Below are positions 45,707 through 63,900 of a stretch of 64,000 nucleotides of DNA, in pieces. This stretch comes from an uncultured archaeon. GTDB taxonomy: Archaea > Asgardarchaeota > Lokiarchaeia > Sigyniarchaeales > SOKP01. The translations under genes and the position numbers were made by a program. Numbering within the stretch: position 1 is the stretch's first letter; each line of letters begins with the position of its first letter. A model generated the notes under the pieces. The model did not search any database. It was not told the origin of the DNA and saw only the letters and a list, made by a program, of their open reading frames with translations. Location: NCBI GenBank assembly GCA_964486045.1, contig CAZALK010000004.1, forward strand, positions 224,001 through 288,000, written 5' to 3'.

Positions 45707-45846
45707 TTTAATTATTAAAAAAAAAGTTACAATTTTGTAGTAATCTATTTAGTAATTCGGATTAAAAAAATACTAGTGCAATAATTAAGTATTTTACAAA
45801 TATTGTTTTATTTTCTAAATAATAATCAAACTTGGGAGATTTCATT

Positions 45847-47256
45847 ATGATTGATTTCGAAAAATTATTCAACCCCAGAAGTATTGGGATCATTGGTGTT
45901 AATGAAAAACGTGCTGGTAGATATTGGTTAAGTTGTCTTCAAAATTTTGGTTTCGAAAATCCTATATACCTCTTTAATCCCCGCTTAAAAGGAAAATTTA
46001 TAGCAGATATTCCTGTCTATGGTTCGGTTCTAGAAATACCTGATGATAAGCCCATTGATTATGTAATTATCGCTGTTCCGGCAAGGTTTTGTCCCGCTGT
46101 TCTAGAAGAATGTGGAAAGAAAGGAGTTTCATTTGCAACCATATTTGCATCTGGATTTTCTGAGGTAGGGAATCGCCATTTAGAAGTAGAGGTTCTTGAA
46201 GTTGTAAAAAAGTATAATATAAGAGTAATAGGTCCAAATTGTATGGGAATTTTTGTTCCAAAAAACAACATCTCTTTTACTCCTGGTCTTCTTTCTAAAG
46301 AATCGGGCAATTTTGGTGGAATTTTTCAGTCTGGAGGGTTAGCTATTTATATTTCAGCAAAGGGGCAGTCGATCTATGGAACAAATCCAAGTAAGATTCT
46401 TTCAATTGGAAATCAGATCGATTTGAATTTTGTTGATTTTTTGCAATATTTTCTAGAAGATGATGAAACGAAAATCATTGCACTTTATGTAGAAAACATA
46501 AAAAGTCAGGCAATAGGCAGAAAATTTTTGAATATAGTTAAAAAATTGACACTTAAGGGGAAACCGGTGATCCTTTGGAAAGTTGGAAGTGGTGAAGCTA
46601 CAAAAGAGACAATTATGTCTCATACTGGGGGTTTAGCGGGATCTTTAAAAATCTGGGAGGCTATGACCAAACAAACTGGGGCTTTAATGGTTAAAGATTC
46701 AAATGAACTAATTAACTTAGCTATGCTTTTTCAGAACATCAGCAACATGTCTATGAATAGAAATATGGGGATTACTACAGGAGGGGGTGGTGCTTCAATT
46801 GAAACTACTGATACTTTTGAAAGGAATAATTTAAATATTCCCAAATTTGCGCCAGAAACTGCTGACAAATTTCGAGAATTTGTTCCTGATGTAAATACTA
46901 TCTTTCGAAACCCACTTGATCTAGGAGGAAGCATGGGAAATCCGGAGATTTTTTATAAATCACTTTTGACATTAGACTCGGATCCAAATATTTCTGCTGT
47001 AATTTTCATTAAAGTGTATGACTTTAATCATATCTTTCTCCAAACAATTAAACGGGCTTATAAAGAGATGAAAAAACCTCTTATATGTATAGCTTATAAA
47101 ATTGTCGACGATACGAGTGATTATGCAAATAAAATACTTTTTAAACGGGAATTATTCAAACTAAAGATTCCCGTATTCGAGTCTGTTGCTTTGGCCGCTA
47201 AATCTTTAGATAAAATGTGCACTTTCAGAGAATTTCAAGATACGCATAACTTATAA
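45847..47256 (+). CDS. ADP-forming acyl-CoA synthetase, alpha-type subunit
   Basis: 'LFNPRSIGIIG', 'IGPNCMG', 'QSGG', 'SHTGGLAG', 'NPLDL'; no ATP-grasp beta domain in the ORF. Confidence 0.88.
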   Translation: MIDFEKLFNPRSIGIIGVNEKRAGRYWLSCLQNFGFENPIYLFNPRLKGKFIADIPVYGSVLEIPDDKPIDYVIIAVPARFCPAVLEECGKKGVSFATIFASGFSEVGNRHLEVEVLEVVKKYNIRVIGPNCMGIFVPKNNISFTPGLLSKESGNFGGIFQSGGLAIYISAKGQSIYGTNPSKILSIGNQIDLNFVDFLQYFLEDDETKIIALYVENIKSQAIGRKFLNIVKKLTLKGKPVILWKVGSGEATKETIMSHTGGLAGSLKIWEAMTKQTGALMVKDSNELINLAMLFQNISNMSMNRNMGITTGGGGASIETTDTFERNNLNIPKFAPETADKFREFVPDVNTIFRNPLDLGGSMGNPEIFYKSLLTLDSDPNISAVIFIKVYDFNHIFLQTIKRAYKEMKKPLICIAYKIVDDTSDYANKILFKRELFKLKIPVFESVALAAKSLDKMCTFREFQDTHNL

Positions 47257-47428
47257 CAGAATAATTCTAATTTTTTTTTAATATTTTCCCTTTTTTCATA
47301 TTTAATTTTTGTTTAATAATTCATTTTTAGTTTAGAAGACAAAAGAATATAATTTTGTTATAATTATTGTGTAATAGAGATAATTTTACCCTATTAAGAA
47401 TGAATTAATGAATTAGAGGTATAACAGC

Positions 47429-48748
47429 TTGTCTACATTAATGAGAATTGCTAGGAATGGGAATTATACTAAAGAAATGGAGATTGTTTCTCAAATTGAG
47501 AAAGTCGATGTAGAATTCATACGACGGGGTGTTGAGAAGGGAAGAATAATCATTGCTAAATCAAATCGACGAGAATTGGATACCCCATTAGGGATTGGTA
47601 AGGGTTTATTAGTTAAAATTAATGCTAATGTTGGTTCTTCAAAGACTCATTTTGATATCAATGAAGAAGTAGAAAAAGCTAAGATCGCTGTAAAATTTGG
47701 GGCAGATACAGTTATGGATTTAAGCACTGGTGTTACCGAAGCTGACATAATTTCCATTAGGAAAAGAATAATTGATGAGGTTAAAGTCCCTTTAGGAACA
47801 GTTCCCATCTATCAAACTGCTCTAAGAGCTCTTGAGAATAAAGGAGCAATCATCCACATGGATGAGGATGACATGTTTAATGTTGTCGAAGAACAAGCAA
47901 AGGAAGGAGTCGATTTTTTCACTATTCATGTTGGGGTAACCCGAGAAATTGTTAATTTTCTAATAAAACACCCCAGGTTGATGGGAGTAGTTTCTAGAGG
48001 TGGAACATTCTTAGCATCATGGATCTTAGAAAATAATATGGAAAACCCTTTCAATAGAAGATATGATTATCTACTAGAGATGGCTCAAGAATACGATTTC
48101 ACACTTTCTCTCGGGGATGGAATGAGACCAGGCAGTATATTTGACTCAACTGATTTCGCACAGGTCCAAGAGCTATTAGAAATTTCTAAATTAGTAAAAC
48201 GAGCATGGGCTGCTGATGTCCAAGTTATGGTTGAAGGCCCAGGTCACATCCCTGCGAATGAAATTGAAAGAAATGTCAAAATGCAGAAATCATTATGTGA
48301 TGAAGCGCCATTTTATGTATTAGGTCCGCTTGTGACTGATATTGCCCCCGGATATGATGATATAGTGGGGGCTATTGGAGGTGTAATCGCGGGATTAGCT
48401 GGTGCTGATTATCTATGCTATGTTACCCCCGCTGAACATTTAGGGTTGCCCACCATAGATGATGTAAAGAGAGGTGTTATCTCATCCAAAATTGCTGCTC
48501 ATGCTGTTAATATCGCGCGATATGGGAAACGAGCTTCAGACTGGGATTATAGGATGGATATCGCAAGAAAGGAACTTGACTGGGAAGGCATGATTGAACA
48601 AGCAATTGATCCAGAACTAGCTAGAGAGATACATTACCGAAATGGTTGTGCTGAAGAAGATGGAGATGTATGTAGCATGTGTGGAGAATTCTGTGCGATA
48701 AAACTATTAAAAGATACTCTAGAAAGTAAAAGAAATTCTGCTTTATAA
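47429..48748 (+). CDS. thiC: Phosphomethylpyrimidine synthase
   Basis: 'KINANVG', 'ADTVMDLSTG', 'VSRGG', 'EGPGH', 'CYVTPAEHL', 'CSMCGEFC'; adjacent to thiD. Confidence 0.93.
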   Translation: MSTLMRIARNGNYTKEMEIVSQIEKVDVEFIRRGVEKGRIIIAKSNRRELDTPLGIGKGLLVKINANVGSSKTHFDINEEVEKAKIAVKFGADTVMDLSTGVTEADIISIRKRIIDEVKVPLGTVPIYQTALRALENKGAIIHMDEDDMFNVVEEQAKEGVDFFTIHVGVTREIVNFLIKHPRLMGVVSRGGTFLASWILENNMENPFNRRYDYLLEMAQEYDFTLSLGDGMRPGSIFDSTDFAQVQELLEISKLVKRAWAADVQVMVEGPGHIPANEIERNVKMQKSLCDEAPFYVLGPLVTDIAPGYDDIVGAIGGVIAGLAGADYLCYVTPAEHLGLPTIDDVKRGVISSKIAAHAVNIARYGKRASDWDYRMDIARKELDWEGMIEQAIDPELAREIHYRNGCAEEDGDVCSMCGEFCAIKLLKDTLESKRNSAL

Positions 48749-48915
48749 GTTGAATATCCGATACTATACTCATTTTTATCAACTACTAATTTTTTCGCTT
48801 ATTAGGTAGGCTTTCTTTCCCAGATTTTTATTGACCAGAAAATGGTGAATTCCTTTTATTTCAATAAAACTTTAAGAAATTTTTTATAAAATTAAGGTAT
48901 AATTTACTAAGGGAA

Positions 48916-49743
48916 ATGAAAAAAGTACTCACTATTGCGGGATCTGATTCTGGTGGTGGTGCGGGAATTCAAGCAGATTTGAAAACTTTTTCTGCCCGTG
49001 GAGTTTATGGAATGAGCGCAATTACAGCACTTACGGCACAAAATACTATGGGTGTTCAGAGAGTTTATGAAATGGATCCTAGTTTTGTTGGGGAACAAAT
49101 TGATTCGGTCATGTCGGATATAGGTGCAGATACGTGGAAAACAGGGATGTTAGCAAATACAGAGATAATTCGAATTGTGGCGAATAGAGCTCGTAAATAC
49201 AATATAAAATTATTAGTAACAGATCCTGTAATGATTGCAAAAAATGGGGATCATTTATTAAAACCTGCAGCTAATGACGCATTGATCTCAGAGCTCGTTC
49301 CGCTGGCATATGTTATAACACCAAACCACCATGAAGCTCAAACATTAACAAAAATAAATATTGAAAATTTGACAGATGCTCGAGAAGCGGCTCAAGAGAT
49401 TCATAATCAAGGAGCCCAAAATGTTGTGATTAAAGGTGGCCATTTACCAGATATTCAATATGCTATTGATATACTATATGATGGAAATAATTTCACAGAA
49501 TTTCATGCCCCCCGTATTAACACCAAAAACACACATGGTACGGGGTGTACTTTTGCATCTGCAATAGCAGCAGAATTAGCAAAAGGAAACGATGTAAAAT
49601 CAGCAGTTCACATAGCCAAAGCTTATTTAACTGCAGCAATTCAAAAGGCAGATAGCTTGAGAATTGGTAAAGGACATGGACCTACAAATCATTCTCAGGG
49701 AAATATTGTAGAAGTAGATCTTAGTTTAGTAAAAGTAAAATAA
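48916..49743 (+). CDS. thiD: Hydroxymethylpyrimidine/phosphomethylpyrimidine kinase
   Basis: 'LTIAGSDSGGGAGIQADLKT', 'THGTGCT', 'GKGHGP'. Confidence 0.95.
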   Translation: MKKVLTIAGSDSGGGAGIQADLKTFSARGVYGMSAITALTAQNTMGVQRVYEMDPSFVGEQIDSVMSDIGADTWKTGMLANTEIIRIVANRARKYNIKLLVTDPVMIAKNGDHLLKPAANDALISELVPLAYVITPNHHEAQTLTKINIENLTDAREAAQEIHNQGAQNVVIKGGHLPDIQYAIDILYDGNNFTEFHAPRINTKNTHGTGCTFASAIAAELAKGNDVKSAVHIAKAYLTAAIQKADSLRIGKGHGPTNHSQGNIVEVDLSLVKVK

Positions 49744-49761: not shown

Positions 49762-50343
49762 CTACTCTGTTTTAGCTCTATCAAAAGCCCATTTTGCCTT
49801 ATCGTGCAATCCAAGCTTTTCATAGGCTTTTCCCAAATATAAAAAACCATCAGGAAAATCAAATCTAAGTTTTACTAGTTTGAATAAAAAATTTATTGTG
49901 AGGTCAAATCGTCCTTTCAAAAAATTCGTTTTTCCCAGAATAAATAGTACCTTTAAGTTTTTTGCTTCAGATGAGCCTTCTTCATATAATTCCAAAAGTT
50001 TTTCTATAGCCTCCTCATATTGTTTTTCTTCAATTAATTGCTCAATTTCTTCAATAACTTTTAGGAAAATAGTTTCATTTGTTAATTCTTCCATTTTTCT
50101 CAAATCTTCTTTCTTTTTTTCAACCTCTATAGCATCCAGTTTCTCTTGCGTTTTTTTTTCAAGGTGTTCTTTAAACTGATTGATAACATTCTGTGAATAG
50201 GGTTCAGTGCATAATGGACAATTTTGTGAATGTAATAACCATTCAGCTAAACAATTTTTATGGATGGGATGTTCATTTGTGCACGTGAAAAGAGAATTTG
50301 GTGTTTTTCCTATTTCTAAATGACAAACGATACAAGAAGGCAT
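49762..50343 (-). CDS. RING-H2 finger + coiled coil + TPR protein (putative E3 ligase)
   Basis: C-x2-C-x13-C-x3-H-x2-H-x2-C-x3-W-x6-C-x2-C at the N-terminus; TPR-like 'GFLYLGKAYEKLG..DKA'. Confidence 0.85.
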   Translation of the reverse strand: MPSCIVCHLEIGKTPNSLFTCTNEHPIHKNCLAEWLLHSQNCPLCTEPYSQNVINQFKEHLEKKTQEKLDAIEVEKKKEDLRKMEELTNETIFLKVIEEIEQLIEEKQYEEAIEKLLELYEEGSSEAKNLKVLFILGKTNFLKGRFDLTINFLFKLVKLRFDFPDGFLYLGKAYEKLGLHDKAKWAFDRAKTE

Positions 50344-50525
50344 TATAGTTTTATTACTAATTCCTAGGATAATTATATTTTACAATCTATAGGTTTTTTT
50401 AATAATAAAATTATAGGCTAAAAACTTAAAAGTATTGGTTTTAGTAAAATCGATTTAAAAAATAATAAATAAAACTTCTGTTATTGTTATTTTAACTAAA
50501 TAATAAATAAAGGGTAAAACTAGAC

Positions 50526-52112
50526 TTGTCGATTAATCGAACTGCACTCTTCACGGAGCTTTTTGATCAATTTTTACAATCAAACTCCGATGTTGAGGGG
50601 GTGATCGTGAGTGATCAGCTAGGTTTCGTCATCGCTGGTCAAAAAAGAAGCGATGTGGACATGGAAATTGTTTCAGTTTTGACGTCTATCATAAATCCAA
50701 TTGTAGAAAGAATACGTGATGAGTTTGCTTTCAAAAAATTTGGTACAGCTAGCTTTGATACAGAATTCTATAGACTCTTATTTATCTCTTTAGATGAAAG
50801 TAGAACCTTGAGCATCGTTTTAAATAATTTAGCTTCGGTAGATAAAGCTTCTCCTTATGCATACCTTCTTGCAGAAAAATCGGTACAAATTTTAAATGCT
50901 GAAGAAGGTGATAATATACAGCTAAATATTCCTAATTTTGAATATGAAACAGATGAAACCTCTTACTCCGAAAGAGTAAAAAATCAAATATATCAAATGC
51001 GATTAGATCAAGGAGGAACTTATAGATTCAAGTTTGTTGTAATAGGGGATCATGAAGTCGGAAAAACGAGTCTAGTTAGGCGATTTGTAGAAAATAAATT
51101 TTTACATGACTATCGTGCTACTATAGGATTAAATATCTTAAGTCATTCATATGAATTCTATGGAAATAATATTATATATAGTTTATGGGATGTTGGAGCT
51201 CAACAGTATTTTAAGAGATTTCGACAAACATACTATCTAGGTGCACAAGCAGCGTTTATAGTTTTTGATCTTACGAACCGACAAACTTTTGATGATGTAA
51301 TACAATGGTACCAAGAATTAGAAAGTTTTATTGGTGGTCGAGAAATCCCAATTATTCTTATCGGAAATAAAATGGATTTAAAAGACCAGAAAGTTATTAA
51401 ATATGAAGAAGGAGTGAAATTAACAAATGATTTATCTCAAAAGGCTAATCTTAAGATCTCATATATTGAAACGAGTGCTTTATCAGGTGAAAACGTTGAA
51501 GACGCCTTTACATTAATTGCATATCATTACATATCTAAAAGTAAAGAAGAAGAGGAAGAAAGAGTTAAAAGCGATTTGTTAGATGAACTCAACTCGATCT
51601 TGAAGGAGAAAAAAGTAATTGGAGAAGACTTTGAATCTTTATTAACCCTAACCATCATTTCTGAAAATGAATTTTGGAGCCCGGGGTTACAAATTCTGTC
51701 AGAAATAAATGGGTTAGATGAGTGTAAGAAGCTGAAAGATCAAAGAGATGAGAAATTGTATAAATTCTCTAACGGAGTGACCATTAAAAATTATCTTTAC
51801 CACAATTTTGAAGTTTCTGACGCCGATGGGATTTTTTGCATATTTGACGCTCGGTATAAGGATCATGTTGATCCTGCATGGAGAGATGTTGTCGTGAAAA
51901 TCATAAACGAAATGGAAGAAAATAAGGTAGTTTTAATTGGTATTCGAGTTTCAGATAAAAGTGATTGGTCTCTAATAATGGAAGAATTTGATGTAAATGA
52001 GTTATTAGAACAAAAGATGATATCATTGCTGTTTTTCAAGTTAGGTATTGAATATCGATTGGAAATTTACGATCAACTTAAAGTAATGTTAAATACAATA
52101 AAATATTTATAA
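50526..52112 (+). CDS. Roadblock + Rab-like small GTPase + degenerate G-domain protein, paralog 1
   Basis: 'EGVIVSDQLGFVIAG' (Roadblock); 'GDHEVGKTS', 'ATIG', 'WDVGAQ', 'GNKMD', 'ETSAL'; TTG start. Confidence 0.88.
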   Translation: MSINRTALFTELFDQFLQSNSDVEGVIVSDQLGFVIAGQKRSDVDMEIVSVLTSIINPIVERIRDEFAFKKFGTASFDTEFYRLLFISLDESRTLSIVLNNLASVDKASPYAYLLAEKSVQILNAEEGDNIQLNIPNFEYETDETSYSERVKNQIYQMRLDQGGTYRFKFVVIGDHEVGKTSLVRRFVENKFLHDYRATIGLNILSHSYEFYGNNIIYSLWDVGAQQYFKRFRQTYYLGAQAAFIVFDLTNRQTFDDVIQWYQELESFIGGREIPIILIGNKMDLKDQKVIKYEEGVKLTNDLSQKANLKISYIETSALSGENVEDAFTLIAYHYISKSKEEEEERVKSDLLDELNSILKEKKVIGEDFESLLTLTIISENEFWSPGLQILSEINGLDECKKLKDQRDEKLYKFSNGVTIKNYLYHNFEVSDADGIFCIFDARYKDHVDPAWRDVVVKIINEMEENKVVLIGIRVSDKSDWSLIMEEFDVNELLEQKMISLLFFKLGIEYRLEIYDQLKVMLNTIKYL

Positions 52113-52263
52113 GGAAATTCTCTCATTTTATTGTATTTTTATGATAGTTGTAATATGTTATGTTCTAACTTAAGTAATCACATTTCATAATCTCCTAAGA
52201 ATAACAAAAAATAATAACAAGTAAAACTATAATATAGATATAAATAAATGGGTTAGACGATCC

Positions 52264-53823
52264 TTGGTAATAAGTAAAAATAAGATCTTTTTCGAATTGT
52301 TTAACAATTTCTTAGAAATAAATGAGGAAGTAGAAGCCGTTATTGTTTCAGATAGCGAAGGTCTTATTATCGCAGGGGAGAAGAGGAAAGATGTAGATAT
52401 TGAACTTATTTCAGTTTTAACCTCAATAATTAACCCTGTTTTAGAACGTATGCGAAATGAATTTTCTTTCAAGAAATTTGGGAATACAAGTTTTGATACA
52501 GAAGATCATCGTCTTTTGTTTATCTCTGTTGATGAGGAGCACATCCTAAGCCTAGTTTTAGACAATATGGCTTCTCTTGAGAAACTCTCACCATATGGTC
52601 TATTTCTCGCTGAAAAAACAGCACAAATTTTGACCGCTGAGGAAGATGACCATATCCAATTGACTGTACCGAATTTTGAATTCGAAGCTGAAAATGTTCA
52701 AAGGTTGAAAAATCAACTATATCAGATGGATCTGACAACCCATGGAGAATATCGCTTTAAATTTGTTATTTTGGGGGATCACGAAGTTGGTAAGACTTCG
52801 ATCATTCGAAGATTTGTCGAAAACAAGTATACGGAAGATTATCGGGCAACTATAGGACTAAATGTTTTGACACACACCTTTGAATTTTTTGGGAATGAAA
52901 TTGGGGTGACCTTATTTGACTTAGGTGCCCAAAAATTTTTCCGTCGTTTTCGAAAAGTGTATTACTCAGGCGCTCAAGCAGCTTTTATCGTTTTTGATTT
53001 ATCAAACCGTGAATCTTTTAGTAATGCGTTGAATTGGCATCAAGAATTAAAGGAATTTACATCCGATCAAGAAATTCCTATAGTATTAGTTGGTAATAAA
53101 TCAGACTTAAACGAAGAACGACAAGTTTTTTATCAAGAAGGGGTGAAACAAGCAAATGAATTGTCTGAGAAAGAAATTATTAAGTTATCTTATATTGAGA
53201 CAAGTGCCTTGACAGGAGAGAATATTGAGGATGCATTCAATTTGATATCATATCATTACGTAATGAGAAGTAAAGAAATCGAAGATGAGAGACGTGGTGA
53301 CCTATTATTTGAAAAAATAACCTCTATTATTAAGAAAAAGATTGTATTAACAATATCTTTTATTTCAGAAAATACAATGTGGAGTCCAGGTCTTCAAATT
53401 ATCGCCAATATAAAGAAATTAGGAGAACAAACACTAGTTAGAGATTATGACGATGAGCAAGTCTACCAATATCTCAATGGGTTAATCACCAAACAGCATA
53501 TTTTTTCTGCGGCTGATGATATCTCAAGTTCTGATGGCGTATTTTGTATATTTGATTTAAGAGATAAAGAACATGTCGATCCTAAATGGAAAGAAATTAT
53601 TATTAAAATTATTGAAAATTCTAAAGATAAGGGAGTAGTATTAATTGGGATTAGAGCTGTGGAAAGTAGTAGTTGGTCTCAGATAATAGAAGAATTAAAT
53701 GTCGATGAACGATTAGAAAATAAAGTAATTGATCTCTTCTTCTTTAGAATTGGAACAGATTTCCGCTTAGATATTTTCGATCAGCTAAAGTCGATGCTTT
53801 CAGTTATTGATGATAAGTATTAA
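52264..53823 (+). CDS. Roadblock + Rab-like small GTPase + degenerate G-domain protein, paralog 2
   Basis: 'EAVIVSDSEGLIIAG'; 'GDHEVGKTS', 'ATIG', 'FDLGAQ', 'GNKSD', 'ETSAL'; TTG start. Confidence 0.88.
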   Translation: MVISKNKIFFELFNNFLEINEEVEAVIVSDSEGLIIAGEKRKDVDIELISVLTSIINPVLERMRNEFSFKKFGNTSFDTEDHRLLFISVDEEHILSLVLDNMASLEKLSPYGLFLAEKTAQILTAEEDDHIQLTVPNFEFEAENVQRLKNQLYQMDLTTHGEYRFKFVILGDHEVGKTSIIRRFVENKYTEDYRATIGLNVLTHTFEFFGNEIGVTLFDLGAQKFFRRFRKVYYSGAQAAFIVFDLSNRESFSNALNWHQELKEFTSDQEIPIVLVGNKSDLNEERQVFYQEGVKQANELSEKEIIKLSYIETSALTGENIEDAFNLISYHYVMRSKEIEDERRGDLLFEKITSIIKKKIVLTISFISENTMWSPGLQIIANIKKLGEQTLVRDYDDEQVYQYLNGLITKQHIFSAADDISSSDGVFCIFDLRDKEHVDPKWKEIIIKIIENSKDKGVVLIGIRAVESSSWSQIIEELNVDERLENKVIDLFFFRIGTDFRLDIFDQLKSMLSVIDDKY

Positions 53824-57307: not shown

Positions 57308-57898
57308 CTAATCTAAAAAATAATTATTATTTAAGGAAATAACAAACTGATCTACATCTTCTTGTATATCACCGCAAATTTTAAGCAAATGGGAATTCGT
57401 TAAGGTGATTTTCTCTACTCTAAAACCGTACTCTCTAGCTAAGATTTCACACGCATTCAAATCATCAATTTTAGTGGTGTTATACTCTGCACATTTAGAA
57501 CCAAGAGAAATCTTGCGAAAACAATGGGCTCCTGCTTCTTTATCTTTCGCATCAAAAGTTCTATATCGACATAAACCATATTTTTTTTCTGGTCTCGCTA
57601 AAAAAATAACATCTTTCATCTCAGTCGTACAATAGACAATCTCCCCAATTTTCACTTTTTCCAAGAACTTTTTGGACCGTACTTGTATTTTATCTGCAAG
57701 ATAATCATGATATAAAAGCTTATCTTTAAGCCCAGGACAAATCTTTAGCGCTTCAATTTTAAAAGATTTACTAAGTTCTACAAAGGAATTAAAAAACCTA
57801 CAATAAATAATATTCTTGCGTAATATCTTAAACTGGCAACCCTTAAAAGCACTCAAGCAAATGTAAGAATCTTGGATATTCGAATAATTGCTTTCCAT
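57308..57898 (-). CDS. Hypothetical protein; candidate immunity partner of the upstream giant protein
   Basis: 196 aa, Cys-rich, starts 40 bp after the giant ORF stop on the same strand. Confidence 0.6.
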   Translation of the reverse strand: MESNYSNIQDSYICLSAFKGCQFKILRKNIIYCRFFNSFVELSKSFKIEALKICPGLKDKLLYHDYLADKIQVRSKKFLEKVKIGEIVYCTTEMKDVIFLARPEKKYGLCRYRTFDAKDKEAGAHCFRKISLGSKCAEYNTTKIDDLNACEILAREYGFRVEKITLTNSHLLKICGDIQEDVDQFVISLNNNYFLD

Positions 57899-57938
57899 AT
57901 ATAATAAATAAGAAAATAAAAATATATAATTTTAACTA

Positions 57939-60900
57939 TCAGAATGAGCTTAAAATGTTCCGATAATTTTTAATTTTCTTCTGAGGAGCATCTGTACCAG
58001 TTAATCTTTTATACTCATCTGATATATATGCTTGCATATCACTATATTTGACGGTATAAGGAACAACAATCAGATCAACCCCATTCTTTTTGCAGAGTTC
58101 TACCTTTAATTTATCATTTTGTTGAATTCTCTGTAGTCTTTTTAATGCAACATCCCTACTTAATTTATAAACCTTTATATGGAACTCTAAATCATAATGT
58201 TGAGGACCGTTATACTCAATTGCTAACCTCAACTTTTCGTTGTAACCATCTAATTCAAGTAATCCACCAACCCCCTGTAACCATTTCACTGATCCCTTAG
58301 GATATTTTCTAAATCTTGCATTAAAAATATACTTCATATAAGCACGCGAAAGCATTTCTGGCTCCGTGTCTTTAGAATGTCTATTTATGAAATTCCTTAT
58401 GATTCGGGATGCTTTTTGTTGGATACTAACTAAATCATCATGACTGATTGCATAATGTGTGATTTTTTCAAATTCAGTGGTCGTTAAATCTTCTATATTC
58501 TGAATCATTCTTGTTAAAGTTTCAAGAGCAGGATTAGTATAAACTCGCTGTCCAAAAAAGCTTTCAAATAGATTATATCTATGACCATAAAGTAATAAAG
58601 ATAGAGCAATTCGTGATTTTAATGAACCTTGCGGAAATAAGGCTATCAATCTGCCAACTAACTTTCCACGAGGTGTATGGGAAATCTCTAAGGGAACTAA
58701 ATCATTAGCAGAAACTGTAGCAAAAAAGATGTCAAATGATTTAATAAATGAATCGTATACATTATGGGCTTGTAAATCTTCAGAATGCTTAGATTTCAAT
58801 TCACCAAATAACTTAGCATATATTGATGGTGTAATCCCACGGGAAGCGTCACTTCTCATTAAAGATAAAGTCGCTGAAAAAGCTACTTTAAATTTCTTCT
58901 CAAAAATTCTAACTGATTGCTTATCTATGATCTTGGCTTTATAAAAAATCAAAGCTAAACTTCGTGATAGTGTTAAAAGAGGTAAATAGCTAGGATTCTC
59001 TATAGTCTGGTAAACCGGTGTTTCATAATATTCTGTAAAGACATCCAAAATATCTAAAATATCGTCAAAGTGATTTTTTTCCTCTATTACTGATTTTTGG
59101 TACAATTTCAACTTAGCAATTGATAATAAATCAAAGAGAAATTTCTCTGTTACTTTTTCAAGATTTCCCTTTCCAATTTGGTATCTTGTAGCAGTAAAAT
59201 AATTCTCATTGACTTCGAAAAAATTTGCAAGTTGAGTGTCAAAAAAATCAATACCAAACACTTCAGATAATTTATCCTTTAACCGAGAGGTGAACCTGTT
59301 ATAAGCATTTAGACTTACTTTCCGGCCGTTATAACGTATCAATTTATTCATAAATGCCTCTGTAGCGGTAAACATTCGACTCAGCGCTTTAATCAATTTA
59401 GGATTAGGTAGGACTGCCGCACCGCTAACTTGTCCAACCGGGAGGATTTGTTCGTTTGGATCGTTAAATAGATAAAACTTTCCATCAATAACAACTCCAT
59501 CCTCGAGATTGTTAGGGACAGGACTTAATTTTCCATCGTCTGTTATGTCCTGCATCACATCAGAAATACCTACCATATCAAGATCAGAAATAATTTTTGC
59601 AGATTCACTTGATGATGATTGAACCACTATATTATGAATAATGGTTTTATGTATCTTGAAGCTCTTGGAGAACGTCTTAATCGCTGAAAATCCGGCAACA
59701 AGTGTGCCACTGAAGAACATCGGTCCGCCAATGCCGACAAGTGCAGCCCCGAGTACAAGGGAGGCTCCGGTCTTTATTATAGAGCTCCATTGGGGTTTTA
59801 TTTTGATGTGAGATTCTCTTTCGCTAATTGTCTCTAGAGCAGCTTTTTCTGCTGAAATCTCATTAGTTATGTGGCGTTCGGACACTAAATTTTGAGTGTT
59901 CGTTTGGGTGTCTCCGAATAGGAATTGGGACATCGGACCTGTGATAGACTCACGTCCTCCTTCTACGAGGCTATTAATAAACACCTGCATGAAAATATCC
60001 AGACCTAAGCCTGCAACAAGCTCAGATACGACAATTTCGAGAAGGGGGTCTGTAAAAATTTCTTGCAGTGATTCAAAAATCGGGGATGTAATGAATTTTA
60101 CTAATGTCGTACTAGCTGCCATGCCGGCGATCATAGTTCCAATGGTAGGTCTAATAGCCCACTTAGAAACATCATCTAAAAGGCTTTGTGTAAACGTTGG
60201 AATCATGGCGGCGCTTGCTCCTTTAGTTAAATATTTTGCAAGTTTACCTATACCGAAAGTAGCACCCACAGTAAGAATTGTACTTATTGTAGTTACGAAA
60301 ACGGTATAACACATCTGTGACAAAGTCTCTTGTGTAATTTGAGCGTTTCTGTATTGATAGGTATATTCGAGTATGTTCTGTTCGATAGCTTGCATGGTGG
60401 CAACGCGATTTTCATCTGAATTGGTAGGATCAAGCGCTTGATATTTAGAAACTTTTATCTCGAATACATAAAACACTTCATAGTCGGGATCACCGATGTA
60501 TGCACTTGCCTTAGCTTGAGCATTCGATATTAAGTAAGAATAGACACTGTCGCCAAGAGTTAAGACTCCTGTTGTTTTGCTAAATGAGAATGTGTGGTTC
60601 AGATATGAGCCAACAAATCTATTATTATGAATGTCATTACCGTTCGAGTCTATACCTAAGTATTCATATTGATATACATCTATTTGTTGAATATCGGCAT
60701 ATATCATATGAATTTTATCTTCAGGGATAAGTTCAATATCTTGTGAACTTTCAGTATCAAATATTTTATAAATAGTAAATTGGTCATTTTCAACTGTGGA
60801 GTAGCTACTAGAATCTACAAATATTGGATATTCGTGATAAAATTCGGGTATAGGGAATCCGGTATTTGCACCTGCAAATTGGAAGGTTGGAACAAAAACT

Positions 60901-63900
60901 CCGTCGTTACGTTGCAAGTATGGGTAAAGTTTGTTGTATTCCCCGTTAGTCTCCTTGTTAATTGCGTTTTCTAAACCCATGATAGCATTTGGACTCTGAG
61001 TAGAAGTGAATGAATGTGGCGATAGCCGAGGATCATCGATATCCGAATACCCTGAATAATCACGCGTCTGTATGGCGTAATCAAGCGAAATAGGAAAATT
61101 GGAACCCCAATTTGTCTTCTTCCACCCTTGTGGGGCGAGAATAAGGGCTCCCTTGAAGTCATGGTTGTCGTATTCTAAAAATACATCACTGTACACACCG
61201 GCAGAACTCCCTATGATCATATCAGGGATTGATCCCCCCCATACCCTATCAGCCTCATTTTTGCTCGAGAGGGTAATAGCACCGTCATAATCTTCATTAT
61301 AAAGCGTTTGAGAAGCTACTAGTTGGGTGTTATCATGAGCTTGTTTCATAGCATTGAGAGCGCTGAGAATTGCATACATGAGTATGAAACCCGCGGTGCC
61401 AGTATGTGTTACGATCCCAAACAGAGTTGAAATAAGTGCAGCCCCAACTTGCCATAAAATGTCTTGAACCATTCTACCTTGTATAGATTGAACAAACTGA
61501 CTTGAGGTTATGGCTGAGACCTCTCTCATTAGTGTACTAGTCTCTGTATTATACATTATTTTCCAAACATCATATAATGAATCAGAGAATACATCGTCTA
61601 AGAAATATCCATCGTAAGAATTATAATCCCGCAAAAATACCCTATTTTGAGGCCCAAGGTTTGAAAAATCCCATAATCCGCTAGATGTGGAACTTATAAG
61701 ATGTTTTTCACTAAAGATTTTCTTGTTTGGCTCAAAATGAGAATTGTAATCGTAATCAAAACCTATTGCAAGTACTTTCTCGTCTCTGTTAACGACGAAA
61801 ATAGTGTCGAAAACTCCGTCTTGAGCGCTGGAATAAAACCAATATTCACCGCCAACGTCTACTTTTCTAGGATTTGTTTTCGGATTGCTGTCAATAATTA
61901 CTTTTCCATCATCAGGAATAATTTGGATTACTTCTAAGGTAGAAGATACCTTATCTGACCTTGAGAGAGAATCTGGAATTGATACTGTCTTTTGAACGGT
62001 CAAGATGTTTTCAAAAACTAGTGAGTCGGTAATGGTGGTTTTACTATCAAACAGAGCAGGAACATTGTCGGTAGTATGAGTGAAGCCCAAAAGCTCTTCT
62101 AATGCAGGGGCTTGAAGTGTGAGGTCATTTGATGGATCTTCATCCCCGTTATCGTTAGTAATTACCTTTAAATAAGTATTAGGATCGTATTTTGCAGATA
62201 GCTCATTAGCGAAAGTATCTTCATAAATCCGAACTGAGCTTACTTCGCCATATTCATAATCTCTAAAGGTAAATAAGTGGGATTTAGCAGAAGTCTCAAC
62301 GAAAGAGTCACGCAACTCTGTAATGGTCCCCTCGGGGAACATTTTGGTGCTAAAAACATCATCTAAGAAAAATCCCATGATTTCTGTAGTATATGTAGTC
62401 GTCTCTGAAAATGTACTCGATGCTTCAAATGTGATGTCTTTATCAATAAGCCCATCTAAATCGAGGTCTTTTTGAATAATTACTGTTGTCTTTGTAGTGG
62501 TGCTAGTCGTGGTGGTATTTGTTATTAATGTTCTTCGACCAAAAAGGGTTCCGACCATATAAGGAATACCATTTTTATTTTCTACATAAAATTTATCTCC
62601 AAAAATTGTATTATCACCTGCAATCTCATAATACTTAGTACTTCTTACATCGCTGGTCTTTTGCGTCTCTACGTTAGTTGTCTTTGTCTTGATTAAGGTG
62701 GTATGGAACACAATCTCCCCTGCGGAGTTAACTTCTCCATATTTATAAACATCGTAAATGCCGTCGATGTCAACATCCTGACTTTGTATGACTAACTCGT
62801 GTTCTCCATCAAGGCTAAAATCATAAAGCTCTAGGGCAGTTCGTTTATCATCCTTTCTTGAGAAATTTGCGAAGTCAGTAAGCTGAATATCGTTATTAAA
62901 CTCATATTCTGAAGTTAAGGTATTATAAATAACAAAATTAACATTTCTCACATATTCAAGGTATTCAAAAAGCGAATCATCAGAGCCAACCGCATAATCT
63001 TCCATAAGTAGGAAGTAATCAATATCATTGTATTCGTAATCAACATAGATGCTGTCATTCTTGGTCCAAGCAGGTGGTCCTGATTTATCTTTCCCATTTT
63101 GAAGTAGCCTGAATTGAGTGTAATCAGAATAAGCACCTTCAGTAAAGTTAAGATATACAATAACCTTCTCAAAATTTCTCAAACTAATGCTATTTGGCGC
63201 TTGAATTTGAATCGATTCTCCGTCAGGGAAATTAGAATCTGCTGGATCAAAATCGACCTCAGATTCGTTGAAAAAGAGTCCTTTTATCATCATGATTTCT
63301 AGGTTTTGGGCATCGGAATAATCTTGTGATAAGTCAAATGTATCTGTATCTCCTTCCGAATTATAAGGGAAAATATTCTCAATTGCGATGTGTCGTGCTT
63401 CAAATTCGTTTAGGGATTGATCATATGCGACAGATTGATATTCTTCCAAAATCTCATCGTACCATTCAAAAGTGATATCCATTGTGCTGATATTTACGTT
63501 TGGGGTCTCAATGGTGTGCCATTCGTTCCATGCATTTTGGTCTGCCCATGAAAGGTAGAGGTATCTGAAAGTGTCAATATGAGGATTATAATATTCAAAT
63601 AAGTCTTGAAGATCCGAATCTTGGTCACGGTAGGCATAATAATATTCTTCGTTGTATTGAGGATTCCAAGTAATATCATAAACCCCTGAAGTCGTTTCTT
63701 GACCACTTAAGTGTTCATCAAAATAATACCAATTACCATCACTATCAAATGCATCGAAATAATAAGTCTCGTTTATTGCAGGATCGTCTTGATATAACGG
63801 GAGAAACTCGCTTGCGTCTAGGATTATAGATTCACTATAAATATTCGCATAATCCCCCACATAAAACTTTTCTAAATGGTTATTTTCAAAAATATCGAAA

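Follow-up and report, generated by a model that had tools for sequence, protein, structure and literature searches.

The 64,000-nucleotide (nt) stretch of DNA analyzed here (the window) spans positions 224,001 to 288,000 of contig CAZALK010000004.1 in assembly GCA_964486045.1 of an uncultured archaeon of the Lokiarchaeia, and contains two adjacent genes, referred to below as A and B, that encode Roadblock-GTPase proteins of 528 and 519 amino acids (aa), respectively. Researchers look to Asgard archaea for the forerunners of membrane and nutrient signaling in eukaryotes, and at first glance A and B resemble a Rag heterodimer with its domains inverted, which is how a first-pass annotation of the sequence tentatively interpreted them. 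Fusions of a Roadblock domain to a GTPase have been described before in Asgard archaea. We found that A and B are a real, conserved and lineage-specific variant of this theme and are not evidence for a proto-Rag/TORC1 machine.

Gene models and domain architecture

Both open reading frames (ORFs) were recovered, on the same strand, exactly where the first-pass annotation had placed them. Its description of two adjacent, co-oriented and colinear paralogs with three domains each was borne out by the coordinates (Table 1), by Pfam, by structural models and by an end-to-end alignment of A with B, in which 55% of the positions were identical and 78% positive, with gaps at 12 positions. Identity between the two proteins was 62% in the Roadblock domain, 55% in the linker, 63% in the G domain, 38% in the helix that follows it and 49% in the third domain. 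TTG is the start codon of both genes; their orthologs use ATG or TTG at the same start codon, with a GGT-containing, ribosome-binding-like motif ~8-10 nt upstream. Because the start codons and the upstream motif of the orthologs agree, the starts of A and B are credible and the gene models hold. Orthologs of A were 73-91% identical and nearly all exactly 528 aa in length, and full-length orthologs of B showed 66-92% identity, with a length of exactly 519 aa in the majority. Judging from its sequence, the spacer between A and B may provide a terminator and a promoter.

The N-terminal domains of A and B matched the Pfam family Robl_LC7 below threshold (15.6-18.7 bits vs. a cut-off of 23), and 15 of 21 family members likewise gave sub-threshold matches. 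A profile of the family's Roadblock domains matched the solved "Roadblock/LC7 domain protein" 7YH1 with an E-value of 2.4e-4 and, weakly, MglB (E 0.3-0.8). An AlphaFold2 (AF2) model of A, built with 49 homologs and having a mean predicted local distance difference test score (pLDDT) of 74.8, arranged residues 5-123 in the Roadblock order, alpha-beta-beta-alpha-beta-beta-beta-alpha, with helices at residues 5-19, 46-66 and 105-123 and strands at 23-30, 35-40, 74-78, 82-88 and 93-100. A Roadblock fold is therefore predicted, on the strength of this element order and of the match to 7YH1. Residues 124-164, between the Roadblock and G domains of A, were modeled with low confidence despite their invariant residues; the model continues with a G domain at residues 165-330, one long helix at 324-364 and a second alpha/beta domain at 373-527. 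Complex prediction for the two 128-residue Roadblock domains, one from A and one from B, run without controls, gave a score of 0.22 vs. a mark of 0.32 and counts neither for nor against binding.

Both G domains scored far above the Pfam Ras cut-off of 21.6 bits (146.9 bits for A and 143.7 for B) and above the NCBIfam small_GTP cut-off of 42.5 bits (78 and 86 bits, respectively). The structures most similar to the G domain of A in Foldseek were those of Rab8, Rab1, Rab10 and Rab6, at 30-35% identity. No match to Gtr1_RagA (PF04670) was obtained in A or B at E-values up to 1; a few relatives in a third clade carry a weak precomputed match to that family. The Ras score of 147 bits, the lack of a Gtr1_RagA match and the nearest structures all agree with the original view of a Rab-like, and not a Rag-like, G domain. 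A and B are identical in G1, switch I and G5 and nearly identical in G3 and G4, and the GDHEVGKT motif, the switch-I Thr (RATIG), the Gln after G3, NKxD and ETSAL were kept in all members of the home family (f1) that were examined. A C-terminal prenylation Cys, a trait of eukaryotic Rab proteins, was found in neither protein: A ends in ...IKYL and B in ...DDKY, and a helix and a 155-residue domain follow the G domain.

This third domain of A, when modeled alone with 32 homologs, gave a pLDDT of 89.2. Its Foldseek matches (E 5e-6, template modeling (TM) score 0.5-0.59) were almost all Rab, Arf or Ras proteins and included 1XCM, the structure of Ras G60A. Using the exhaustive aligner VIA-align, the domain was superimposed on the Asgard Arf 8OUL with a Z-score of 12.4 and a root-mean-square deviation of 3.7 over 150 aligned residues, on the Lokiarchaeal Rag-like GTPases 8YL2 and 9M28 with Z-scores of 11.7 and 11.4, and on MglA and RagD with a Z-score of 11.0. 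Coverage in the top matches was 142-152 of 163 residues, and dozens of further small GTPases had Z-scores >9. None of the motifs GxxxxGK[ST], DxxG, NKxD and SAK occurred in the 32-sequence alignment of the domain, in which WSPGLQ, FCIFDAR and LIGIR were conserved instead. Since the modeled GTPase fold is combined with the loss of all nucleotide motifs that were checked, the third domain is, according to model and alignment, a pseudoGTPase. Comparison of its profile with that of the family's own G domain produced a marginal match (E 1.6e-3, probability 16%, 42 columns) that places beta4-alpha3-beta5 of the third domain on the equivalent elements of the G domain; this is suggestive, not proof, of an origin by internal duplication of the G domain. 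All scores in a protein-atlas look-up of the third domain were below 0.9, and the CENP-M (0.88), Ras and Arf clusters that it returned are leads only.

The G3 motif of the G domain proper reads D-x-G-A-Q, with Ala at the position of the switch-II Gly of small GTPases (DxxGQ), in 62 of 62 home-family members examined. For small GTPases, the genome, a 5.18-Mb Asgard assembly, gave 65 BLAST matches to A and 79 matches to a G-domain profile, and among these 79 only A and B have Ala at this position. Distant relatives carry DFGGQ (in a sister family) or DIGAH. Work on Ras G60A and Gs-alpha G226A showed that the switch-II glycine couples the gamma-phosphate to switch II and is needed for the GTP-dependent conformational change. 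Because DxGAQ alters this coupling glycine, the switch of A and B likely behaves unusually, by analogy with those mutants. Carried further, the same argument would make A and B no true switch at all: GTP would be bound without the normal change or efficient hydrolysis, and each protein would be a nucleotide-loaded scaffold with two GTPase-shaped modules. The universality of DxGAQ in the family, its uniqueness to A and B within the genome, the requirement for the glycine and the fact that the second GTPase-fold domain is already dead are all in keeping with this explanation. We nevertheless consider it unlikely, as the Gln after G3, the switch-I Thr, the P-loop Lys, NKxD and SAL are conserved, which fits selection for nucleotide chemistry, and the glycine one position earlier in the motif could compensate.

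Other GTPase-like ORFs of the genome depart from the consensus in different ways. Approximately 13 of the 79 G-domain matches have Glu in place of the catalytic Gln after G3 (DFGGE, DFAGE and similar), and several further matches have degenerate P-loops, such as GDAPGSKQA and SELGRHKTA; their sequences suggest that these are additional atypical or dead GTPases. Two 196-codon GTPase ORFs (C1:288650-289237 and C16:114490-115077) share the same P-loop, G3 and G4 motifs, have the same score against A and are both flanked by a similar degenerate neighbor. They represent either a repeated segment or an assembly duplicate; contamination of the genome is 7.8%.

Table 1. Features of the A/B locus in window coordinates, and TPR-fused paralogs at other loci
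Feature	Position	Strand	Evidence
RING-H2/coiled-coil/TPR protein, 193 aa, divergent from gene A	49762..50343	-	zf-RING_2 and TPR matches, zinc ligands
Divergent AT-rich intergenic region, 182 bp, between RING-TPR gene and gene A	50344..50525	.	Sequence reading; head-to-head layout conserved
Gene A, 528 aa: Roadblock, Rab-like GTPase, helix, predicted pseudoGTPase	50526..52112	+	ORF call, Pfam, AF2
A Roadblock domain, residues 1-128	50526..50909	+	AF2 element order, profile match to 7YH1
A linker, residues 129-164; invariant P136 and K152; modeled as disordered	50910..51017	+	pLDDT <50 for residues 136-162
A Rab-like G domain, residues 165-335: G1 GDHEVGKT, switch-I T199, G3 DVGAQ, G4 NKMD, G5 ETSA	51018..51530	+	Pfam Ras (E 5e-43), Foldseek, motif reading
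A charged helix prolonging the last G-domain helix (model helix 324-364), then short linker	51531..51641	+	AF2; least conserved segment between A and B, 38%
A third domain, residues 373-528: small-GTPase fold without P-loop, DxxG, NKxD or SAK	51642..52109	+	Model, Foldseek, VIA-align, alignment
A/B spacer, 151 bp: T-rich tracts past the A stop; TATA-like, GGT-containing stretch ahead of the B start	52113..52263	.	Sequence reading
Gene B, 519 aa: four-part layout as in A	52264..53823	+	ORF call, Pfam, alignment to A
B Roadblock domain, residues 1-128	52264..52647	+	Pfam Robl_LC7 (E 0.005 over residues 21-95); aligns to A domain
B Rab-like G domain, residues ~160-333: GDHEVGKT, DLGAQ, NKSD, ETSA	52741..53262	+	Pfam Ras (E 4.8e-42), motif reading
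B predicted pseudoGTPase domain, residues 361-519	53344..53820	+	Aligned with A domain, 49% identity
TPR-fused paralog	L027:1597-4284	-	One of the three has a weak Gtr1_RagA match
TPR-fused paralog	L050:1687-4155	+	As above
TPR-fused paralog	L050:9526-12216	+	As above

Distribution and age of the pair

When the third domain of A was searched against 1.84 billion representative proteins, 41 relatives were returned, all of this family. A profile of the domain matched 67 of the 68 genomes of the home family, representing nine genera, and had no match in 29 other Asgard families save for one 4.3-kb contig that nests inside the home genus. Two sister families of the same order possess single, very distant copies with 29-36% identity over their full length. 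In 11 genomes of the sister family f2, no match to the third domain was found. Orthologs of A and B are labeled Promethearchaeota or Lokiarchaeota by NCBI. Outside one archaeal family, the three-domain architecture has only weak relatives, in two sister families, and this narrow range argues against a role in the origin of eukaryotes or of TORC1. The relevance to the origin of endomembrane and TORC1-type signaling that had been proposed for the pair was thus not borne out. It is also countered by the existence in Asgard archaea of true Rag-like proteins, in which the G domain precedes the Roadblock domain (PMC10933270; structures 8YL2 and 9M28).

Contig L049 (G317:C309, 4330 bp), from a genome assigned to another Asgard family, encodes RING-TPR, A, B and a dehydrogenase, nests inside the home genus in the tree, next to G002, and is probably misbinned. 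The genome under study also has five two-domain Roadblock-GTPase paralogs (C1:525081, C21:40879, C11:52328, C10:65982 and C11:43036; loci L003-L006 and L009) with open frames of 321-410 aa that are 30-38% identical to A and have no third domain. In all five, G3 is a canonical DxxGQ or DxGGI.

Within the home genus, A followed by B in tandem was present in 20 of 24 other genomes (one draw), and the same arrangement was seen in many genomes of a second genus. In ten of the home-genus genomes that were examined in detail, A was always 528 aa and B 519 aa, with a few B open frames reaching 522-525 aa from an earlier start, and the spacer between the genes was 85-565 nt, bar one 4.8-kb insertion. 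This insertion, at L018:4197-9000 of genome G024, contains three ORFs with lengths of 327, 508 and 338 aa; offsets of ~4.8-5 kb between the two genes also occur in part of the second-genus genomes. In phylogenetic analyses, the second genus's upstream genes fell with A at a support of 96-98, and the downstream ones fell with B at 93-95. As the upstream and downstream genes of the two genera cluster separately, the duplication predates the split of both genera, and the pair, with its orthologs in the same order in two genera, is not a recent strain-specific duplicate. All trees were quick searches for which support was calculated with the Shimodaira-Hasegawa-like approximate likelihood ratio test only. 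One A/B tree took in two unrelated ORFs (L054 1-2904 and L055 2-1558), which formed a long outgroup branch and left the A and B clades unaffected.

In the genera g12, g13 and g15-g18, a single three-domain gene occupies the same locus, between a RING-TPR gene with thiD beyond it on one side and a dehydrogenase gene on the other. A and B are therefore an in-place duplication of an ancestral single gene. The tandem, whose conservation across Lokiarchaeia the first-pass annotation had listed as a check, occurs in two genera of the home family, and single-copy orthologs occupy the locus in seven others. A separate tandem duplication was found in g13, and further paralogs of the family occur at unlinked loci. 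In three home-genus genomes (99, 99 and 96% complete), the gene beside the RING gene is of the B type and A is absent altogether; because their lone gene is sister to the other B genes of the home genus, A was lost in these three genomes. B evolves faster than A, with stem lengths of 0.26-0.35 vs. 0.11-0.18.

These observations bear on how the two proteins could act. In an obligate Rag-like heterodimer, A and B would function only as a 1:1 complex formed through their Roadblock domains, with their G domains in opposite nucleotide states as in RagA:RagC. Paralogs of a self-pairing ancestor often pair with each other, and A and B are kept adjacent and in the same order across two genera. A precedent is the adjacent Rag-like pair of Prometheoarchaeum MK-D1, which is predicted to heterodimerize through its Roadblock domains (PMC10933270). 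An obligate A:B heterodimer is nonetheless quite unlikely in our estimation, and this claim of the earlier annotation was not upheld, because the single-copy state at the same locus is ancestral and the most widespread and because near-complete genomes exist that have B without A. The near-identical G motifs of A and B, moreover, give no hint of a Rag-type division of labor, and both genes are individually preceded by a ribosome-binding-like and a TATA-like stretch. Optional pairing of A with B may still occur where both genes are present.

Alternatively, A and B could be independent, subfunctionalized paralogs, each acting as a homodimer or monomer of its own with partners or timing that differ, and could be neighbors only because tandem duplicates tend to stay together. 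Several results are compatible with this scenario: A and B differ most in the helix and the pseudoGTPase domain (38 and 49% identity, compared with 62-63% in the Roadblock and G domains), B is the faster-evolving copy, the family has paralogs at unlinked loci, g13 made a tandem duplication of its own, and ~4.8 kb or more separates the two genes in G024 and in some second-genus genomes. However, the order A-then-B with a short spacer in nearly all genomes of two genera is more than is usual for genes of unrelated functions, and we regard complete independence as possible but rather doubtful.

The RING-TPR neighbor

The gene that diverges from A encodes a protein with a match to Pfam zf-RING_2 just above the cut-off (27.9 vs. 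27.3 bits) and with TPR matches, and all eight zinc ligands are present in the arrangement C4-x2-C7-x13-C21-x3-H25-x2-H28-x2-C31-x10-C42-x2-C45. It lies head-to-head with the GTPase gene at every home-family locus that was sampled with enough flank, in eight genera. The order at single-gene loci is thiD or a related kinase, the RING-TPR gene on the opposite strand, the GTPase gene and, usually, a gene of the Iso_dh family (isocitrate/isopropylmalate dehydrogenase). Two home-genus genomes (95 and 98% complete) had matches to neither A/B nor the RING-TPR protein. Where additional paralogs sit at unlinked loci, they are not accompanied by a RING gene. Three E2-like UQ_con genes above the Pfam cut-off were found in the genome. 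Three extra paralogs, of 822-896 aa, consist of the three-domain core joined to a C-terminal array of ~5-7 TPR repeats (Table 1).

Upstream, positions 45832-49743 encode an ADP-forming acyl-CoA synthetase-like protein, ThiC and ThiD. Downstream, on the minus strand at positions 57308-63860, lies an ORF of 1973 aa together with a small one of 196 aa, with no Pfam match. The thiC, thiD, Iso_dh-family dehydrogenase, GNAT and CoA ligase genes among these window neighbors gave no functional link to A and B, and neighbors other than thiD and the dehydrogenase vary between genomes.

A proposed Roadblock-GTPase-pseudoGTPase module and its relation to known systems

Taken as a whole, we think it reasonably probable that A and B, which are ancient tandem copies of a lineage-specific Roadblock-GTPase-pseudoGTPase, are regulated by their Roadblock domains and linked to the RING-TPR protein, and that they are not a forerunner of Rag/TORC1. 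The ancestor of the family had one three-domain gene, head-to-head with the RING-TPR gene and located between thiD and the Iso_dh-family gene. This gene underwent duplication in place before the two genera diverged, and both copies persisted, A before B. Roadblock domains generally dimerize, and by analogy those of A and B would do so as well, forming a homodimer in species with one copy; in those with both genes, homodimers, an A:B heterodimer or both would form. The Roadblock dimer may then act as a platform that regulates the tethered G domain from within the same protein, much as MglB does for MglA, and the helix and pseudoGTPase domain, as the most diverged parts of the proteins, could set the partner specificity of each paralog. 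The module probably works with the neighboring RING-TPR protein, a putative E3 ligase or scaffold.

A bolder version of this last step is that the RING-TPR protein and the Roadblock-Rab-pseudoGTPase proteins work as a single machine, a ubiquitin-type ligase gated by a GTPase, in which A and B would be a heterodimeric switch and their pseudoGTPase domains would select different targets. Either the ligase would modify the GTPase or the GTPase would control the ligase. We assign this proposal a low probability. If true, it would represent an Asgard-specific coupling of small-GTPase and ubiquitin signaling, with eukaryote-like components combined in a way that is not known from eukaryotes.

Several observations weigh against a Roadblock-regulated, RING-linked module as described above. 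Homologs of the RING-TPR protein are present in 11 of 11 genomes of a sister family that does not have these GTPases, and therefore the RING gene is independent of this GTPase family. At the five loci examined, the RING-TPR homologs of sister families did not lie beside a GTPase gene, and one divergent neighbor was an MFS transporter. The conserved adjacency in the home family can partly reflect shared ancestry rather than function, and the TPR fusions are only a lead because TPR repeats are promiscuous. Furthermore, the model of full-length A has a predicted TM score of 0.56, such that its domain arrangement is not confident, and the homology of the third domain to G domains consists of the fold and one marginal profile match.

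The evidence shows a family-level invention: to the Roadblock-GTPase design that already existed were added a dead second GTPase domain and an altered switch, and the gene came to be tied to a RING-type ligase gene and was later duplicated in place. A compact three-gene system of this type could offer access to the regulation of a tethered GTPase by Roadblock and to a possible coupling between small GTPases and ubiquitin-like modification in Asgard archaea. It also serves as a caution that not every Roadblock-GTPase pair is a proto-Rag.

Individual parts of the module have counterparts in well-studied systems. p190RhoGAP contains two pseudoGTPase domains and CENP-M is a stand-alone pseudoGTPase; like them, A and B keep a GTPase fold without nucleotide motifs beside, or instead of, a working G domain. 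They differ in that no sequence relationship was found and in that the surrounding domains and the organisms are others. RING-type E3 ligases with TPR repeats (the CHIP-like design) are known, and RNF152 is a RING ligase that acts on RagA. The A/B locus similarly encodes a complete RING-H2 domain and TPR repeats beside a GTPase gene, a likeness at the level of gene adjacency. In the MglA/MglB system of Myxococcus and Thermus, a Roadblock dimer regulates a Ras-like GTPase, and a comparable regulatory role may apply to A and B; MglA and MglB are separate proteins, whereas A and B join both parts in one chain.

The closest published relatives are those of Tran et al. (2024; PMC10933270), who listed a Roadblock-fused small GTPase architecture ("RG") with four entries for Prometheoarchaeum MK-D1. 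A and B resemble these proteins in coupling an N-terminal Roadblock domain to a Ras/Rab-like G domain and in coming from a Loki-type Asgard archaeon, and differ from them in the added long helix and C-terminal pseudoGTPase domain, the DxGAQ switch and the RING-TPR neighbor. No three-domain form is present in the MK-D1 list of that study. The MK-D1 "operon pair" of the same authors is also not equivalent to A and B, since WP_147663117 and WP_147663118 have the G domain ahead of the Roadblock domain (PMC10933270). In the searchable literature (open-access papers and preprints), we found no description of the three-domain form, of the DxGAQ signature or of the RING linkage, and no report of an Asgard pseudoGTPase.

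Finally, A and B share with the Rag/Gtr proteins (RagA/B:RagC/D and Gtr1:Gtr2) and with the Asgard Rag-like proteins (8YL2, 9M28 and the MK-D1 pair) the fusion of a small GTPase to a Roadblock domain and the occurrence of paralogs side by side. Unlike Rag/Gtr, they have a third domain, a Rab-like G domain, a pairing that is probably not obligatory and a range of one family, and their Roadblock domain comes first, so that the inversion of domain order noted in the first-pass annotation is confirmed by both Pfam and AF2.

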